Source: Pseudomonas phage SW_PA2862_11_24
Length of the DNA: 64,000 nucleotides
Sequence record: PV574406.1
Strand: one strand, 5' to 3'
Shown here: positions 42,478-45,458 of the stretch, piece after piece
Layout of the letters: each line of letters begins with the position of its first letter
Position numbering within the stretch: the stretch's first letter is position 1
Notes under the pieces: generated by a model
Told to the model about the DNA's origin: nothing
Database searches by the model: none
The model's input: only the letters and a program-made list of their open reading frames with translations
Program-made: the position numbers and the translations under genes

Positions 42478-42482
42478 TTAAT

Positions 42483-42556
42483 TGCCGCTTCGTTCAATGG
42501 TAGGACGCCAGACTTTGAATCTGGAGATGATGGTTCGATCCCATCAGTGGCTGCCA
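42483..42556 (+). tRNA. tRNA-Gln(TTG)
   Basis: cloverleaf folded by hand; anticodon loop CTTTGAA; T-arm GATGG-TTCGATC-CCATC; U1-U72 mismatch; CCA encoded. Confidence 0.6.
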
Positions 42557-42637
42557 AATGTAGTAAAAGAACATTCACCCGACAAGGAATGTGTCTCGCT
42601 CAGAGGACAGCGAGTAATAAGTGTCCTCCAGAATTAA

Positions 42638-42714
42638 GGGTCGGTGAGCGTAATTGGCAACCTACTGGATTCCAAATCCTCGTATTCTCTGTTCGAATCG
42701 GAGTCGGCCCGCCA
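42638..42714 (+). tRNA. tRNA-like, possibly tRNA-Trp(CCA), imperfect anticodon/D arms
   Basis: good acceptor GGGTCGG/TCGGCCC and T-arm; loop TTCCAAA. Confidence 0.3.
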
Positions 42715-42761
42715 AATTAGTGTTGACAGGAGCAAAGACCTCTTGTATAGTTACACCAACT

Positions 42762-42837
42762 GCTCGTATAGTGTAATGGACAGCACAACGGTCTTCTAAG
42801 CCGTAAGGTCTAGGTTCGAATCCTAGTATGAGCGCCA
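42762..42837 (+). tRNA. tRNA-Arg(TCT)
   Basis: full cloverleaf; anticodon loop CTTCTAA; CCA encoded. Confidence 0.8.
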
Positions 42838-42875
42838 AATTAGATAGGGACAGCCGGTCAGAGTTAGGAGGTAGC

Positions 42876-43286
42876 TTGAAACAATGTACACAATGCAAGG
42901 TTGAAAAGCCTGCAACCGAGTTCTACTTCAAGGGTAGAAAAGCTGACCGTAGACTCCACTCCGAATGTAAGAAATGCTTTAACAGTCGGATGATGAAGCG
43001 ATACGAACAAAGGGCCAAAGCAATTGTTGACATGAAAGGTGGAAGCTGCTATCTTTGTGGATATAACAAATGCGTTGCTGCTCTTGAGTTCCACCACATG
43101 GACCCGAGCCAGAAAGACTTTGAGATTTCAAAGCGGTGGAGTATGAAAGATGAAAGAATCAAAGCAGAGATTAAGAAATGCGTCCTGCTTTGTTCTAACT
43201 GCCACGCGGAGGTTCACTACAATGAAGCCCGTGGCAAGATTTACAATTGGACGGAAGCTAAAGTGGTCCCGGCATCTGGCTTTTAA
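42876..43286 (+). CDS. HNH homing endonuclease inside the tRNA array
   Basis: TTG start after AGGAGG; EFHHMDPSQKDFE...LLCSNCHAEVH HNH motif; 3' end overlaps tRNA-Lys. Confidence 0.65.
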   Translation: MKQCTQCKVEKPATEFYFKGRKADRRLHSECKKCFNSRMMKRYEQRAKAIVDMKGGSCYLCGYNKCVAALEFHHMDPSQKDFEISKRWSMKDERIKAEIKKCVLLCSNCHAEVHYNEARGKIYNWTEAKVVPASGF

Positions 43287-43323
43287 CCAGACCTTAGTGA
43301 GTTCGAGTCTCACCCGTTCAACC
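43247..43323 (+). tRNA. tRNA-Lys(TTT)
   Basis: acceptor TGGACGG/CCGTTCA; anticodon loop CTTTTAA (HNH stop codon TAA lies in loop); T-arm GTGAG-TTCGAGT-CTCAC; CCA. Confidence 0.6.
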
Positions 43324-43328
43324 AATTT

Positions 43329-43416
43329 TAGTGAGTAAATCAGATAGGTTCTGAGGCTCCCTGCTAAGGAGTACGTCTGCTAACGCGGATGTGGATCGAG
43401 ACCACTGCTCACTGCC
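43329..43416 (+). tRNA. tRNA-Ser(GCT), class II
   Basis: anticodon arm GCTCC-CTGCTAA-GGAGT like E. coli Ser; long variable arm. Confidence 0.7.
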
Positions 43417-43489
43417 AAAATAAGTGATTTTAAGTGTTGACAAACTGAATTTTCCATGTTTTAATACACTTATCAGATCAAGAAATACT

Positions 43490-43579
43490 TAGCGAGTAGC
43501 CCTGAGTAGGTCGGGAACTAGTCTAGAAAACTAGGCCACTGCGATGAGCGGTGAGGGTTCGACTCCTTTACTCGCTGCC
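43490..43579 (+). tRNA. class II tRNA with unusual anticodon loop CTAGAAA (anticodon AGA, Ser-like?)
   Basis: perfect acceptor AGCGAGT/ACTCGCT; 90 nt; CCA. Confidence 0.45.
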
Positions 43580-43585
43580 AAATTA

Positions 43586-43670
43586 AGGCCCTGTGGTGGA
43601 ATTGGTATACACATCAGTCTTAGAAACTGACGCCGAGAGGATTGAGGGTTCAAGTCCCTCCGGGGCCACC
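43586..43670 (+). tRNA. tRNA-Leu(TAG), class II
   Basis: anticodon arm TCAGT-CTTAGAA-ACTGA; T-arm GAGGG-TTCAAGT-CCCTC; CCA. Confidence 0.75.
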
Positions 43671-43825
43671 AAATTAAGAATCTCTTTTGCTATTTGGTTA
43701 GGGTTCGAGTCCCTTACCGGCGCGTAGTCGGTCTACGGTGGCCAAATAGTGAGAGAGCTAGGGGACATGACGAAGGTAGCGCTGCTTTCCGATCTCCCCG
43801 GCGCTATAAAAGTTATCATGAAGGG

Positions 43826-43853
43826 GTTGACAAACAAGAAATTCATGATAATA
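43826..43853 (+). promoter_or_regulatory. sigma70-like promoter TTGACA-N16-TAATAT inside the tRNA array
   Basis: upstream of tRNA-Ile. Confidence 0.5.
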
Positions 43854-43878
43854 TAGGTACATAGAGTAACAAACAATA

Positions 43879-43954
43879 TGGCCAGATAGCTCAATTGGTA
43901 GAGCACCCGACCGATAATCGGGTGGTTGACGGTTCAAGTCCTTCTCTGGCCACC
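43879..43954 (+). tRNA. tRNA-Ile(GAT) with C33
   Basis: anticodon loop CCGATAA (C at position 33); D-arm TAGCTCAATTGGTAGAGCA. Confidence 0.7.
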
Positions 43955-43963
43955 AAAATTTAT

Positions 43964-44042
43964 AGGCCCATTAGCTCAGTCTGGACTAGAGCAAGCCCCT
44001 GTCTAGGGCAAGGTCGCCGGTTCGAATCCGGCATGGGTCGCC
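43964..44042 (+). tRNA. tRNA-Asp(GTC)
   Basis: anticodon loop CTGTCTA; T-arm GCCGG-TTCGAAT-CCGGC; CCA. Confidence 0.7.
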
Positions 44043-44044
44043 AA

Positions 44045-44133
44045 CAAGGTCGTTGTAGAGATAGATGGCTACTATCATCCGGCTGTAACCCGGACGCCAT
44101 AGGCTAGAGGTTCAATTCCTTCCTTCGACCACC
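44045..44133 (+). tRNA. tRNA-Tyr(GTA), imperfect acceptor
   Basis: perfect anticodon arm TCCGG-CTGTAAC-CCGGA; T-arm AGAGG-TTCAATT-CCTTC; CCACCA end. Confidence 0.5.
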
Positions 44134-44136
44134 AAA

Positions 44137-44214
44137 TAGCGAGAGCGTTAAGACTGGCTGGAGCTGTCACTCGGCTCATAACCGAGCACAAGTGGTTCGA
44201 TTCCACCTCTCGCT
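44137..44214 (+). tRNA. tRNA-Met(CAT) with enlarged D region; no encoded CCA
   Basis: anticodon arm CTCGG-CTCATAA-CCGAG; 8-bp acceptor AGCGAGAG/CTCTCGCT. Confidence 0.55.
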
Positions 44215-44453
44215 ACAAAATTGCACTCCGAGGAACCCTGAGAATGGGGGTTCAGTGTCGCTACCTATCTCGGTAAGGGGAAGCGCCTAAGCTGGCACGG
44301 GTAATTGAGTAGCTGTGATAAGCTATTGGCAGCCAGTTGAAATCGTCCGGCTCGGGCCCGTTATAGCTCCTAGATTTGAATTAGATGCTGTAAGCCATAG
44401 GAGGTGATCCAGTATCTCCCGGAGGGGCCCGGGTTAACAACCTCATGAATTTA

Positions 44454-44529
44454 GCCCGCGTTGGCCGAGAGGTTTAGGCGGCGGATTGCAAATCCGTCTC
44501 ACATCGGTTCAAATCCGATACGCGGCTCC
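44454..44529 (+). tRNA. tRNA-Cys(GCA)
   Basis: GCGGATTGCAAATCCGTC nearly identical to E. coli tRNA-Cys; CCA. Confidence 0.8.
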
Positions 44530-44539
44530 AAGGTTTATA

Positions 44540-44614
44540 TTGGGATGTAGCTCAGTGGTAGAGCAGGGAGCTGTTAACTCTCAGGTCGCAGGTTCGAGCC
44601 CTGCCGTCCCAGCC
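44540..44614 (+). tRNA. tRNA-Asn(GTT)
   Basis: anticodon loop CTGTTAA; full cloverleaf; CCA. Confidence 0.8.
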
Positions 44615-44677
44615 AATTTACAAAAGAGACTCTTCGCTTTAGAAGCAGAGTCGAACGCCCGATACGGGCCTTATTCA

Positions 44678-44755
44678 TCTCCTCGTAGCTCAGTCTGGTT
44701 AGAGTGTCGGATTTGGAATCCGAAGGTCGAAGGTTCAAATCCTTCCGGGGTGACC
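44678..44755 (+). tRNA. tRNA-Pro(TGG)
   Basis: anticodon arm TCGGA-TTTGGAA-TCCGA; T-arm GAAGG-TTCAAAT-CCTTC; CCA. Confidence 0.75.
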
Positions 44756-44761
44756 AATCAA

Positions 44762-44837
44762 AGCGGGTATAGCTCAGTTGGTAGAGCGTCTGCCTTCCAA
44801 GCAGTTCGTCGTCGGTTCGAGTCCGTCTATCCGCTCC
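44762..44837 (+). tRNA. tRNA-Gly(TCC)
   Basis: anticodon loop CTTCCAA; D-arm TAGCTCAGTTGGTAGAGC; CCA. Confidence 0.85.
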
Positions 44838-44843
44838 AAACAA

Positions 44844-44920
44844 AGGGACTGTAGCTCAGAAGGTTAGAGCGGTGGATTGAAATCCCACAGGTCGGGCGTT
44901 CGATTCGCCCCGGTCCCACC
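44844..44920 (+). tRNA. tRNA-Phe(GAA)
   Basis: anticodon arm GTGGA-TTGAAAT-CCCAC; T-arm GGGCG-TTCGATT-CGCCC; CCA. Confidence 0.8.
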
Positions 44921-44926
44921 AAATAA

Positions 44927-45002
44927 AGCAGTTATAGATTAATTGGTTAAATCGCCAGACTTTCAATCTGGTGTTCCGGGTTCGATCCCCGGTAACTGCT
45001 CC
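44927..45002 (+). tRNA. tRNA-Glu(TTC)
   Basis: perfect acceptor GCAGTTA/TAACTGC; anticodon arm CCAGA-CTTTCAA-TCTGG; CCA. Confidence 0.85.
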
Positions 45003-45063
45003 AATCAAGTCCAAGCCGGAACATTCCTCCGTATGTGCTTTCAGCCGGCTTGGCATTATTCGT

Positions 45064-45138
45064 GTGGAGATTGTGTAGCCCGGATGCTGCCTTTCGGTTG
45101 TGACCCGATTGTTGGGGTTCGAGTCCCCGCCTCCAACC
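45064..45138 (+). tRNA. tRNA-like, possibly tRNA-His(GTG), non-canonical anticodon stem
   Basis: acceptor and T-arm (GGGG-TTCGAGT-CCCC) good; loop TTGTGAC on a 4-bp stem. Confidence 0.35.
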
Positions 45139-45458
45139 AATGTCGTGCAATGGTATATCGCGTTGACGCTTTTAGGCTCTCTGGATCGTAAGCCAGTAAA
45201 GCGAGAATAGCGGGCTCTCGCAGCAGAGCGATAGGTGGTTCGATTCCACAACATGACACTCTTTCCTCCTCGCCTGTGATGAACGGTTTCCTCCTCCTTT
45301 CCCGTCTCACAGGCTCTATTCCCTGCCCTTTAAGCATTTATGGTGATGCACCGGCTTTGTAACCCGGCGAATTCTGTTCAAGTCAGGAATGGGGCACCAA
45401 TTCACTATCAAAGAACCCGCAAGCTCCCGATAGGGTTCACACTCTATAAGGTTGTAGC

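Follow-up and report, generated by a model that had tools for sequence, protein, structure and literature searches.

Why should a phage carry, just upstream of its large terminase gene, a long run of tRNA genes, several of them oddly built, and amongst them a nuclease gene that stops inside a tRNA? The window (the whole stretch of DNA that was analysed, 64,000 nucleotides) comes from a Pakpunavirus, one of the virulent, PAK_P4-like myoviruses that infect Pseudomonas aeruginosa. Across the locus it is 98% identical to Pseudomonas phage PAK_P4, and in more than 100 Pakpunavirus records coverage of the locus reaches 80% or more. I propose that what we see is, very probably, a functional Pakpunavirus tRNA cluster that has received a selfish, homing-type HNH insertion at tRNA-Lys.

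Positions 42483-45399 hold 19 tRNA genes, all on the + strand and serving 18 amino acids; Ala and Val have no tRNA gene among them. The first-pass annotation had recognized a phage tRNA array in which an HNH gene is embedded and overlaps tRNA-Lys, and ARAGORN, Rfam and the open reading frame with its sequence confirm this. Its total of about 18 was too low, tRNA-Thr (45325-45399), outside the range it gave, having been missed. Two genes frame the array:

42154-42477, + strand: conserved ORF of 107 aa (PHROG 3900, E=1.2e-45), a predicted protein, preceding the array
45459-46979, + strand: large terminase subunit gene (Pfam Terminase_6N and Terminase_6C), the downstream landmark

A syntenic PHROG 3900 ORF sits before tRNA-Lys in Otagovirus arrays.

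How many of the tRNAs are to be believed? ARAGORN at its default finds 14 and Rfam at the gathering score finds 13, and their union comes to 15: Gln, Arg, Lys, Leu, Ile, Asp, Met, Cys, Asn, Pro, Gly, Phe, Glu, His and Thr. Relaxing ARAGORN to a 90% threshold (-ps90), a check proposed at the outset, recovers four more on the + strand: Trp(CCA), Ser(GCU), Ser(AGA) and Tyr(GUA). The same setting gives one extra match in the remaining 61 kb or so of the window, both strands included, so the four stand far above chance. Among the genes that both programs find are these, the block from Cys to Glu (44455-45003) being canonical, with Rfam scores of 52-71 bits:

42483-42556, + strand: tRNA-Gln(UUG), Rfam 59.2 bits
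42762-42837, + strand: tRNA-Arg(UCU), Rfam 68.2 bits
43587-43671, + strand: tRNA-Leu(UAG), Rfam 60.4 bits
44455-44530, + strand: tRNA-Cys(GCA)
44541-44615, + strand: tRNA-Asn(GUU)
44679-44756, + strand: tRNA-Pro(UGG)
44763-44838, + strand: tRNA-Gly(UCC)
44845-44921, + strand: tRNA-Phe(GAA)
44928-45003, + strand: tRNA-Glu(UUC)
45325-45399, + strand: tRNA-Thr(UGU), Rfam 36.1 bits

The remainder are atypical in one way or another:

42638-42714, + strand: tRNA-Trp(CCA), ARAGORN -ps90; Rfam 28.0 bits (gathering score 29)
43248-43324, + strand: tRNA-Lys(UUU), "allele B", Rfam 44.3 bits; A8 and a weak D stem
43330-43417, + strand: tRNA-Ser(GCU), class II, ARAGORN -ps90; non-canonical T loop ATCGAGA (A54)
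43491-43580, + strand: tRNA-Ser(AGA), class II, with A34, ARAGORN -ps90; 28.6 bits with the Rfam tRNA-Sec model
43880-43955, + strand: tRNA-Ile(GAU), with C33, Rfam 67 bits; anticodon loop CCGATAA
43965-44043, + strand: tRNA-Asp(GUC), with U37, Rfam 53.4 bits
44048-44134, + strand: atypical tRNA-Tyr(GUA), given by ARAGORN -ps90 as 44052-44130; Rfam tRNA-Sec 22.8 bits
44138-44216, + strand: tRNA(CAU) with enlarged D arm, ARAGORN default
45064-45139, + strand: tRNA-His(GUG), ARAGORN default; G-1, A73 and a 5-bp D stem

All 19 positions are kept in 11 Pakpunavirus genomes, including the divergent phage EM. The odd tRNAs have a nucleotide diversity of 0.005-0.036, which is the canonical range, while spacers diverge from EM by up to 33-47%; diversity within Pakpunavirus is low, and part of the case for conservation depends on the small number of divergent genomes, those of EM, Otagovirus and Bruynoghevirus.

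Taken singly, the atypical genes tell much the same story. tRNA-Gln has T1 opposite T72 (U1·U72), followed by G73, in Pakpunavirus and Otagovirus homologues alike. tRNA-Trp and tRNA-His had been considered doubtful, and both turn out to be real conserved genes, found at the same places in the 11 genomes and showing compensatory stem changes. The anticodon stem of the window's tRNA-Trp has just 3 bp; EM, Moonstruck and HHBS9_1 have C-G in place of its T·T mismatch, and the records of EM, EPA1, Moonstruck and Pyxpy01 label the gene tRNA-Trp. tRNA-His has no Rfam match; its D and anticodon stems covary between Pakpunavirus and Otagovirus. tRNA-Ser(GCU), with no Rfam match at E<=10, is 100% identical to its counterpart in the divergent EM, where the adjoining spacer is 40% different, and canonical homologues occupy the syntenic site in 16Q and REC1. 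tRNA-Ser(AGA), with anticodon loop CTAGAAA, keeps its AGA anticodon in all 11 Pakpunaviruses and in the Otagovirus phiPsa374, Pyxpy01 and REC1 (UGA in 16Q and Amme-3), with compensatory changes in the anticodon stem in EPA1 and in the acceptor stem in EM. No deaminase for its A34 is evident; the phage's deaminase gene resembles dCMP deaminase, not TadA. Position 33 of tRNA-Ile is C in 11 of 11 Pakpunaviruses and T in Otagovirus homologues, the acceptor stem of tRNA-Ile shows compensatory changes, and the tRNA-Asp loop CTGTCTA is kept in Pakpunavirus, Otagovirus, PaP3 and Amme-3. tRNA-Tyr, with a D stem of 5 bp, a short variable arm and two U·U mismatches at the base of the acceptor stem, has 11 of 23 pairs changed on both sides over Pakpunavirus, Otagovirus, Bruynoghevirus and Amme-3.

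The tRNA with anticodon CAU may be of Met identity, or Ile2 according to the tRNAscan isotype model in phage EM. Its 7-bp acceptor stem (AGCGAGA/TCTCGCT) begins at 44138, some 25 nt rather than the usual 19 separate acceptor stem from anticodon stem, and 9 of its 22 pairs are changed on both sides. All array tRNAs encode a CCA end except this one, which in the window ends in ACAA in place of ACCA. CCA is retained by the nine further Pakpunavirus genomes aligned for tRNA-Met (EM is not in that alignment), and the change from CCA to CAA appears to be a point change private to the window.

The oddities listed in the first-pass annotation are thus all there: C33 in tRNA-Ile, the CTAGAAA loop, the Gln mismatch, and the enlarged D region and missing CCA of tRNA-Met. 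Judged by these comparisons, Ile C33, Ser A34, Gln U1·U72 and the enlarged Met D arm are fixed traits of the lineage, as are most of the oddities, the lost CCA alone being private to the window, and the unusual tRNAs are real genes that selection has kept in the phage lineage, not decaying copies. Lys A8, Ser(GCU) A54, Ile C33 and Asp U37 are deviations at normally invariant positions. Some of the low-scoring or deviant tRNAs (Trp, Ser(GCU), His, Lys, Ile, Asp) could be poorly functional despite their conservation.

What would such a cluster do? Three sigma-70-like promoters lie in or before it:

42087-42114, + strand: TTGACA-16-TATAAT, 12/12 matches, upstream of the PHROG 3900 ORF and the array start; corresponds to "putative promoter_12" of PAK_P4
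42723-42751, + strand: TTGACA-17-TATAGT, 11/12 matches, before tRNA-Arg, HNH and tRNA-Lys
43827-43854, + strand: TTGACA-16-TAATAT, before tRNA-Ile and the tRNAs downstream; "putative promoter_13" of PAK_P4, kept also in EM

Transcription from these would give multi-tRNA precursors, from which processing enzymes of the host would release the tRNAs. The most likely role of the cluster is to provide decoding capacity for a phage of 49% GC whose host has 67% GC. The serine codons in 42 ORFs of the window (TCT 25%, TCA 5%) match the AGA anticodon, and the tRNAs of PAK_P1 match codons over-used relative to the host (Henry et al. 2015, PMC4309531). The cluster may also make good the loss of host tRNAs to tRNA-cleaving defence systems.

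An alternative view of the anticodon loops is that Ile C33, Ser A34 and Asp U37 serve mainly to resist host anticodon nucleases and not to decode. These three are conserved across whole genera, and published proposals and experiments show that an altered anticodon loop can let phage tRNAs escape tRNA-cleaving defences (PMC10264068; works cited in PMC12846349). However, no Pseudomonas nuclease with such targets was identified in the analysis, and A34 also suits the phage's strong preference for TCT. As the main explanation of the loops resistance is a possibility I hold doubtful; it does not exclude the reading proposed above.

Then there is the nuclease gene:

42845-43247, + strand: mobile insertion with the HNH gene, about 403 nt (boundaries ±1 nt), between a 7-nt Arg-Lys spacer and nucleotide 1 of tRNA-Lys
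42876-43286, + strand: HNH endonuclease gene, an ORF of 136 aa with TTG start (PHROG 2255 "HNH endonuclease", E=7.7e-43)

AGGAGG stands 6 nt upstream of the TTG at 42876, and the gene is the same CDS as PAK_P4 gp173. Pfam HNH models give below-threshold matches only; a profile matches the McrA HNH domain 6ghc (E=2.3e-5), and CxxC...CxxC, HH, N and CxxCH...H are invariant columns. Just where it had first been placed, the stop codon (TAA, 43284-43286) occupies positions 36-38 of tRNA-Lys, in the anticodon loop CTTTTAA, so that the last 12 codons plus stop coincide with tRNA-Lys nucleotides 1-39, an overlap of 39 nt. The insertion is absent from PT07, PaP1, EM, EPA1, Moonstruck, Henu5, ZGC and phiMK, in which the Arg-Lys gap is 6-10 nt, and its flanks are identical in relatives without it. 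Among 50,697 phage records it is found beyond the window in PAK_P4 only, at 94.3% identity. Judged by its distribution, it is a sporadic insertion set precisely against the 5' end of tRNA-Lys.

ARAGORN calls tRNA-Lys allele B at none of the thresholds tried; the Rfam score of the same allele in EPA1, which has no HNH, is 46.7 bits, against 46.2 for allele A and 50.4 for allele C, and between A and C the anticodon stem shows a compensatory change. Phage HHBS9_1, where an HNH paralogue 40% identical splits tRNA-Lys, has no intact copy, and tRNA-Lys is therefore dispensable, at least for that isolate.

Relatives of the HNH protein are found in like surroundings. The homologues of 55-73% identity come from Otagovirus-like contigs and from a single further phage contig; all of them stop 9-15 nt into tRNA-Lys(UUU), which the closest branch always adjoins. 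A tRNA lies within 1.2 kb in 65 of 80 IMG/VR loci with HNH relatives. The ORF ends inside the next tRNA in 14 of the 80 (exactly 10 nt in for 8 of the 14), the commonest end point being nucleotides 8-10, and many family members in these loci end before a tRNA or do not adjoin one. In Henu5, ZGC and 16Q an HNH gene of a second type stops 10 nt into tRNA-Phe. The family, by all appearances, lives in phage tRNA arrays. Many of the related ORFs are terminated by the tRNA's U8-A9-R10 triplet; tRNA-Lys here has A8, hence lacks that triplet, and for this reason the ORF runs on to the UAA of the anticodon loop. The HNH gene would then be a free-standing selfish element of the homing-endonuclease type, an insertion of some 403 nt flush with the 5' end of tRNA-Lys, which, bringing no stop codon of its own, would be translated 39 nt into the tRNA. 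Its nuclease activity, homing and target site I infer from family membership and distribution.

Might the overlap be a regulatory device that keeps a potentially toxic nuclease low, rather than a passive by-product? RNase P cleaves at tRNA nucleotide +1. In tRNA-Lys such a cut would strip the HNH mRNA of its last 12 codons and its stop, so full-length protein would come only from unprocessed precursors, the processed ones becoming non-stop messages for tmRNA; conversely, ribosomes entering tRNA-Lys would block its folding. The stop lies inside the tRNA here, in the 14 of 80 related loci, and in all tRNA-Lys-linked homologues examined, the arrangement being maintained across 55-73% protein divergence, and HNH and tRNAs share the promoter at 42723 with no terminator between. 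Nonetheless, the overlap is not obligatory, given the many family members that end short of a tRNA or do not adjoin one, and the tRNA-encoded tail (WTEAKVVPASGF) lies outside the part common to homologues, as passive read-through would give. I consider such regulation unlikely.

Nor need the nuclease be selfish at all: it might work for the phage in terminase-associated packaging, against the host, or as a co-opted amplifier of tRNA segments like SegB. The gene is 2.2 kb upstream of the large terminase gene. PaoP5 Orf50, a different HNH of a Pakpunavirus, is reported to be important for packaging (PMC12846349), and recent work shows that SegB of T-even phages amplifies tRNA and anti-defence segments (PMC13096335). 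The tRNAs for Asn, Gly and Phe have strongly dimorphic alleles common to Otagovirus, compatible with nuclease-driven exchange. It is too much, however, to expect a gene required for packaging to be carried by only one other of more than 100 sequenced Pakpunavirus genomes; this HNH cannot be so required. Its relatives' neighbours in 65 of 80 loci are tRNAs, not terminase genes, and flush insertion between two conserved genes is typical of free-standing homing endonuclease genes. A working phage nuclease is thus quite improbable, and the selfish element remains the preferred reading.

The spacers contain further elements:

43682-43757, + strand: structured element, an 18-bp outer stem around a T-arm-like hairpin (AGGGTTCGAGTCCCT) and a second hairpin
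44260-44362, + strand: region homologous to "sRNA1" of PAK_P4, its coordinates carried over from that phage's ncRNA feature at 91948-92050
44380-44445, + strand: invariant element upstream of tRNA-Cys, identical in 6 Pakpunaviruses including EM
45141-45260, + strand: conserved tRNA-like RNA of about 120 nt (RNAalifold; covariance model R1)

The first has a folding z-score of -4.7 (0 of 200 shuffles as stable) and 4 of 28 pairs changed on both sides among Pakpunaviruses; it is absent from EM, where the sRNA1 segment, annotated in PAK_P4 from RNA-seq, is missing as well. Within the invariant element, AGGAGGTGATCCAGT (44399-44413) shows complementarity to the 16S rRNA 3' tail; the 12-mer occurs once per related array, including those of Nankokuvirus, Amme-3 and an Otagovirus-like contig. 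RNAalifold gives the tRNA-like RNA an acceptor-like stem, a GG-containing D-loop-like stretch and a T arm, with a long helix and three-way junction replacing the anticodon arm. Ten of its 32 pairs are changed on both sides; paired cells make up 97%, versus 31-54% in slid controls. Model R1 scores 96 bits in Nankokuvirus Epa24 and 100 bits in PAK_P3, where the match overlaps annotated sRNA2. By this correspondence it is the homologue of PAK_P3 (Nankokuvirus) sRNA2, an abundant late transcript detected by RNA-seq (PMC4933390).

T-arm-only fragments at 43691-43745 and 45231-45255 had been taken for orphan tRNA remnants. That reading is not supported. The hairpins exist (43703-43717 and 45235-45249), and both belong to conserved structures: the former lies inside the long-stem element, the latter is the T arm of the covarying tRNA-like RNA. 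No specific parent tRNA was found for either.

Least probable of all is that Trp, both Ser, Tyr, tRNA-CAU, His and the T-arm hairpins are functionless, decaying pseudogenes or remnants: Rfam scores below threshold or lacking, four genes in need of the relaxed ARAGORN threshold, several deviations at nearly universal positions, RefSeq's "predicted pseudogene" flags on tRNA-Tyr and tRNA-Asn of EM, and the window's own CCA-less tRNA-Met and short-stemmed Trp allele speak for decay, but the odd tRNAs are conserved like canonical ones and far more than neighbouring spacers, many compensatory double changes preserve stem pairing over three or four phage genera, and the T-arm-containing RNA covaries and has that abundant late homologue.

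How new is all this? The overlap of CDS and tRNA-Lys is already an annotation in the PAK_P4 GenBank record, and tRNAs for Trp, Ser, Tyr, Met, His and Thr are annotated in newer Pakpunavirus records; the novelty that the first-pass annotation implied is low. The PAK_P4-like tRNA cluster is a known kind of locus, already described, to which the present comparison adds modest new detail.

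From 42100 to 45520 the window matches Pseudomonas phage PAK_P4 (a Pakpunavirus; GenBank KC862300) at 98% DNA identity, with identical gene order before the large terminase gene, and more than 100 other Pakpunavirus records span over 80% of the same stretch. The array is flanked by a conserved 107-aa ORF of unassigned function (PHROG 3900) and by the large terminase gene, which is where Henry et al. 2015 (PMC4309531) also place it in PAK_P1-like phages. As in the window, a 411-nt CDS overlapping tRNA-Lys is already annotated in the PAK_P4 record; array and overlap alike are in public records. 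The fit of Pakpunavirus tRNAs to phage codon usage is also in print (Henry et al. 2015, PMC4309531), and a role for the cluster in codon supply, with a possible use against host defences, has been discussed earlier (PMC4309531; PMC12846349). Its upstream neighbours on the minus strand (36000-40482) include genes for an ATP-dependent DNA ligase (36000-37208), a dCMP-deaminase-like protein (37205-37621) and a ClpP-like protease (39934-40482).

How many tRNA genes are there? ARAGORN at its default finds 14 and Rfam at its gathering score 13, for a union of 15. Relaxing ARAGORN to a 90% threshold, a check that the first-pass annotation had proposed, recovers four more, Trp(CCA), Ser(GCU), Ser(AGA) and Tyr(GUA), all on the plus strand and in gaps of fitting size; the background of this setting is one extra call in the other ~61 kb of the window. 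This brings the array to 19 genes, of which 18 encode CCA; together they serve 18 amino acids, all but Ala and Val. The array reported by the first-pass annotation is there, then, while its count of about 18 falls short: tRNA-Thr (45325-45399), beyond the range it covered, was overlooked. The curated covariance-model threshold of RF00005 (29 bits) is reached by 13 genes, at 36-71 bits, and Trp lies just under it at 28.0. For Ser(AGA), tRNA(CAU) and Tyr the sole match is to the related tRNA-Sec model (23-29 bits), and the Rfam covariance-model search of the array gave no match to Ser(GCU) or His. Further tRNAs hidden in the spacers Gln-Trp, Ser-Ser, Asn-Pro and Glu-His or in 45260-45324 can be set aside, as similarity to tRNAs there does not exceed the shuffled background. 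Published Pakpunavirus counts are 11-13 (2015, PMC4309531) and 17 (phage Adele, 2025, PMC12846349), and Ser(GCU) is annotated in none of the Pakpunavirus records inspected; the present calls support a complement of 19.

Several of these genes are odd. Those oddities noticed at first reading are present in the sequence: tRNA-Ile has C33, a class II tRNA the loop CUAGAAA, tRNA(CAU) an enlarged D region and an ACAA end, and tRNA-Gln the mismatch U1·U72. To them can be added U37 in tRNA-Asp, A8 in tRNA-Lys and A54 in tRNA-Ser(GCU). The near-universal nucleotides U8, U33, purine 37 and T54 are broken by Lys A8, Ile C33, Asp U37 and Ser(GCU) A54, one position per gene in genes otherwise tRNA-shaped and conserved, and the remaining genes conform. 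ARAGORN draws a four-arm cloverleaf with a 7-nt anticodon loop, which compensatory substitutions in homologues maintain.

The homologues come from ten other Pakpunavirus arrays (PAK_P4, PT07, PaP1, EM, EPA1, Moonstruck, HHBS9_1, Henu5, ZGC, phiMK), with outgroup arrays from Otagovirus (phiPsa374, Pyxpy01, 16Q, REC1), Nankokuvirus (Epa24, PAK_P3), Bruynoghevirus (PaP3, Ab22) and phage Amme-3. In all 11 Pakpunavirus arrays, the window included, the 19 positions are filled, the one exception being a disrupted tRNA-Lys in HHBS9_1. The odd tRNAs have a diversity within the genus of 0.005-0.036, the range of the canonical ones. Ser(GCU) is 100% identical to that of the divergent phage EM; the adjoining spacer is 40% different, and other spacers 33-47%. 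The atypical Tyr gene is common to Otagovirus, Amme-3 and the unrelated podophages PaP3 and Ab22. Changes on both sides of a pair are found at 11 of 23 pairs in Tyr and 9 of 22 in tRNA(CAU), and individual compensatory changes also in Ser(AGA), Ile, His, Trp and Lys. All the Pakpunavirus arrays have C33 in tRNA-Ile, against U33 in Otagovirus, and the AGA anticodon is fixed across Pakpunavirus and three Otagovirus phages, with UGA at that place in 16Q and Amme-3. U1·U72 and G73 are common to all Gln homologues, and since GlnRS opens the 1:72 pair and reads G73, the mismatch is not a defect. The pyrimidine U37 beside the anticodon of tRNA-Asp (43965-44043, loop CUGUCUA) is kept in Pakpunavirus, Otagovirus, PaP3 and Amme-3. 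Two traits belong to particular alleles. The ACAA end of tRNA(CAU) appears private to the window, CCA being kept in the nine other aligned Pakpunavirus genomes (EM is outside the alignment), and in the Trp allele of the window a U·U mismatch stands in for a pair that is C-G in EM, Moonstruck and HHBS9_1. From these comparisons I conclude that the odd tRNAs are best regarded as selected genes with lineage-specific shapes.

What might A34 be good for? An AGA anticodon pairs directly with UCU, and over the 42 ORFs of the window (10,957 codons) TCT is the most frequent TCN codon, at 25% of Ser codons, and TCA the least frequent, at 5%. A phage TadA that deaminates A34 is not in evidence: the sole deaminase candidate within 36-42 kb, the minus-strand ORF 37205-37621, is dCMP-deaminase-like (ComEB/dCMP-deaminase 62.8 bits vs TadA 25.8, both under the cut-offs; Pfam dCMP_cyt_deam_1). 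Resistance to host anticodon nucleases may be an alternative or additional reason for the oddities of the anticodon loops (PMC10264068).

The genes for tRNA-Asn, -Gly and -Phe (within 44541-44921) have strongly dimorphic alleles in Pakpunavirus; their diversity is 0.12-0.22, where that of the others does not exceed 0.05. Otagovirus, too, has both tRNA-Phe alleles, which suggests that tRNA genes have been exchanged between genera near a site of nuclease insertion. The Asp-Tyr block (43960-44134) shares 82-89% identity with the tRNA cluster carried by unrelated 45-kb podophages (Bruynoghevirus, e.g. PaP3), a likeness that points to blocks of tRNA genes having moved horizontally between P. aeruginosa phages.

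The spacers hold more than nuclease genes. Two elements recur in other arrays, here with their coordinates on the given strand:

45141-45260: tRNA-like RNA of about 120 nt, homologue of sRNA2, T arm at 45231-45255; also at 3838-3963 of locus L004 (Epa24) and 1805-1930 of locus L029 (PAK_P3).
44380-44445, core 44399-44418: conserved spacer with the invariant element AGGAGGTGATCCAGYATCTC; also at L004 3504, L029 1471, L013 3846 (a further comparison locus) and L019 7226 (an Otagovirus-like contig).

The first-pass annotation took two T-arm-only fragments, 43691-43745 and 45231-45255, for remnants of tRNAs. Both lie instead inside conserved structured RNAs, and no parent tRNA is traceable. The candidate parents, Val or Ala tRNAs such as Otagovirus arrays carry, fail on alignment to 212 related tRNAs, where the fragments score 32-35 (null maximum 27) and hit the generic T arm only. 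The element at 45141-45260 folds into a 7-bp acceptor-like stem, a D-loop-like stretch containing GG and a T arm, with a long helix and three-way junction in place of the anticodon arm. In Nankokuvirus it is picked up by a covariance model trained on four Pakpunavirus copies, with 96 bits in Epa24 and 100 bits in PAK_P3, both times between tRNA-Tyr and tRNA-Gln. Ten of its 32 pairs are changed on both sides over the two genera, and 97% of cells are paired, as against 31-54% when the partners are slid.

The PAK_P3 copy overlaps annotated sRNA2. Chevallereau et al. 2016 (PMC4933390) report that this late RNA is abundant, lies between two tRNAs and has a T-loop-like stretch of 11 nt that PAK_P1-like phages also keep. 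The nearest described counterparts of 45141-45260 are PAK_P3 sRNA2, its homologue, and the stable band C/D RNAs (species 1/2) of T4 cited in PMC4933390; that paper offers no structure for sRNA2, whereas the tRNA-like fold here has the support of covariation. A CCA end is encoded in the copies of Nankokuvirus but not in that of the window. Rfam has no match to 45141-45260. A tmRNA would be about 250 nt or longer with a tag frame, and the element has just ~120 nt and no G3·U70; ARAGORN in tmRNA mode at an 80% threshold gave implausible permuted calls only, and the sole tmRNA-family match of Rfam in the region is a weak tmRNA_permuted at 44893-44985. An intron-containing tRNA or a Y-RNA has no credible ARAGORN or Rfam support. 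The other fragment is enclosed by an 18-bp-stem structure, 43682-43757 (folding z-score -4.7), whose stem closes off the T-arm-like hairpin and a second, covarying hairpin, with four double-sided changes within the genus; it is missing from EM. It could be a processing site for a double-strand-specific RNase. It lies directly upstream of a promoter at 43827. I take both elements to be tRNA-like or tRNA-derived structured RNAs and not debris.

The element AGGAGGTGATCCAGYATCTC has a single copy in each array where it is found, those of Pakpunavirus, Nankokuvirus, Amme-3 and an Otagovirus-like contig. At its start, 12-15 nt are perfectly complementary to the 3' tail of 16S rRNA (the anti-Shine-Dalgarno region), the part past 12 nt with reference to the Pseudomonas 16S sequence. 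A small ORF following this Shine-Dalgarno-like element at 44399 can be dismissed, as there is no start codon at working distance and no frame is kept between genera. The Asn-Pro (44616-44678) and Glu-His (45004-45063) spacers are conserved like tRNAs, 1.6% and 3.3% different from EM, and fold to stable hairpins (z-scores -3.0 and -2.3). Another spacer stretch, 44260-44362, is homologous to sRNA1 of PAK_P4, a feature annotated from RNA-seq, and part of a ~165-nt segment missing from EM; its fold is no more stable than that of shuffled sequence.

The nuclease gene of the window has a TTG start at 42876, after AGGAGG, and encodes 136 aa. The product matches PHROG 2255 ('HNH endonuclease', E=7.7e-43) and several other HNH PHROGs, and a profile search finds the McrA HNH domain 6ghc (E=2.3e-5); Pfam HNH models give sub-threshold matches only. 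Invariant residues are C4/C7, C31/C34, C58/C61, H73-H74, N108 and C106/C109-H110...H114. With this catalytic motif, its flanking zinc-binding Cys pairs and the family similarity, the product is a predicted HNH (beta-beta-alpha-Me) endonuclease. Relatives free of the gene have tRNA-Arg, a spacer of 6-10 nt and then tRNA-Lys; the insertion of ~403 nt (42845-43247) is placed precisely ahead of T1 of tRNA-Lys. Codon 125 (TGG) is tRNA-Lys nucleotides 1-3, and the frame continues through the acceptor, D and anticodon stems to a TAA stop at anticodon-loop positions 36-38. Among 50,697 phage records the insert is found in PAK_P4 only, at 94.3% identity where the flanks are 98% identical. Such a sporadic distribution, with a discrete insertion between conserved genes, is that of a free-standing homing endonuclease gene. 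That its tRNA-Lys neighbour is a copy damaged by the nuclease can be set aside: the same tRNA-Lys allele ('allele B') is present in EPA1, Henu5 and phiMK, which are free of the gene, and its Rfam score is like that of other alleles.

The closest homologues, 126-130 aa, share the ...YNW junction with the window protein and have no tail beyond it. They are on four Otagovirus-like contigs (L019, L021, L022, L027), a 71-kb phage contig (L026) and a 97.6-kb IMG/VR contig (L031), and all six genes terminate 9-15 nt inside tRNA-Lys(UUU). The tRNA-Lys site itself differs in their arrays, being first in the array, directly after the PHROG-3900 ORF or tRNA-Val. Relatives at 38-70% identity are encoded at a wider set of 80 IMG/VR loci: a tRNA is no more than 1.2 kb away in 65, and 14 of the ORFs have their end within the following tRNA (Thr, Asn, Lys, Gly, Leu, Gln). 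Eight of these 14 stop exactly 10 nt in, the stop codon being tRNA positions 8-10 (UAG or UAA). The window ORF runs on to the anticodon loop because its tRNA-Lys has A8 and because it is read in a different frame.

Other nuclease genes behave similarly. An HNH gene of 171-173 aa, unrelated to that of the window, occurs in Henu5, ZGC and Otagovirus 16Q (L016 2877-3392, L017 2832-3347, L007 3502-4023) between tRNA-Gly or tRNA-Cys and tRNA-Phe; it ends 10 nt inside tRNA-Phe, with nucleotides 8-10 as its TAG stop. In HHBS9_1 (L015 1058-1604) a 141-aa HNH gene, a 40% identical paralogue, is inserted in the tRNA-Lys anticodon loop right after CTTTTAA, the very loop where the window ORF stops; 11 nt of tRNA are lost, and no tRNA-Lys is detectable in that phage. 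In PT07 (L002 1578-2030) the CCA end of Ser(AGA) has received an ORF of 133 aa, with the 12-nt direct repeat TTACTCGCTGCC on either side, and the upstream tRNA copy now ends in CCC. This insertion pattern, with relatives at the 5' ends of tRNAs, fits a free-standing homing-endonuclease lifestyle directed at tRNA genes.

I found no earlier description of the full count of 19 with Ser(GCU), of the conservation of Ser A34, Ile C33 and Asp U37, of the branch of HNH genes specific to tRNA-Lys and the tendency of the family to stop within a following tRNA, or of a covariation-supported fold for sRNA2. These points are refinements within a known kind of locus, and their biological value is incremental. 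Pakpunavirus phages are widely used therapeutic candidates. Their annotation, which still gives 11 to 17 tRNAs, can be brought to 19 with the A34 tRNA-Ser and Ser(GCU) included. The HNH type is a second nuclease family linked to phage tRNA arrays besides the GIY-YIG enzyme SegB, with a closest branch that is isotype-specific and a recurrent end of the reading frame within the next tRNA. The previously unexplained sRNA2 gains a structural model. The way in which selfish nucleases rearrange the tRNA sets of phages, today seen as cargo against host defences, becomes a set of testable questions.

Does the overlap of ORF and tRNA do anything? It is attractive to see it as a control device, with cleavage by RNase P taking the stop codon off the HNH message. 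However, the tRNA-encoded tail lies beyond the part of the protein common to homologues, and many HNH relatives do not overlap a tRNA. A passive by-product of insertion seems at least as likely. One can go further and imagine a 'tRNA-docking' class of homing endonucleases, made only from precursors that RNase P has left uncut, within a cluster that is a broader RNA operon for manipulating translation. Its members would insert flush at tRNA nucleotide 1 and let the tRNA sequence supply the stop codon, typically the conserved U8-A9-R10 triplet and in the window the UAA of the Lys anticodon loop; the operon would join the tRNAs with the tRNA-like sRNA2 homologue and the invariant anti-16S-tail element. 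I think this improbable.

The homing lifestyle at tRNA genes is established for SegB of T4, a GIY-YIG enzyme (PMC2330249) whose recognition site takes in the tRNA T-stem-loop motif (PMC2330249; PMC13096335) and whose homologues are statistically associated with tRNA genes (PMC13096335). Like the window gene, SegB is a selfish nuclease gene among phage tRNA genes and sporadic among relatives. The enzymes belong to different families, GIY-YIG and HNH, and SegB showed no isotype preference, whereas the closest branch of the window HNH is always at tRNA-Lys(UUU) with the ORF end inside the tRNA. Cleavage and homing have been demonstrated for SegB; for the window HNH I infer them, and its target likewise. 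A second comparison is with tRNA introns. No Intron_gpI match is found in the window from 42000 to 45600 (E<=10) or in HHBS9_1 (E<=0.05); the window insertion is 5' of tRNA-Lys nucleotide 1, which speaks against an intron or a split tRNA-Lys, and in HHBS9_1 splicing could not restore the tRNA, because 11 nt of it are deleted. Group I introns with homing endonuclease genes in the anticodon loops of bacterial and phage tRNAs (PMC3984707) resemble HHBS9_1 in tying a nuclease gene to that loop; the window differs from those introns in that its insertion is outside the tRNA and the ORF alone reaches in.
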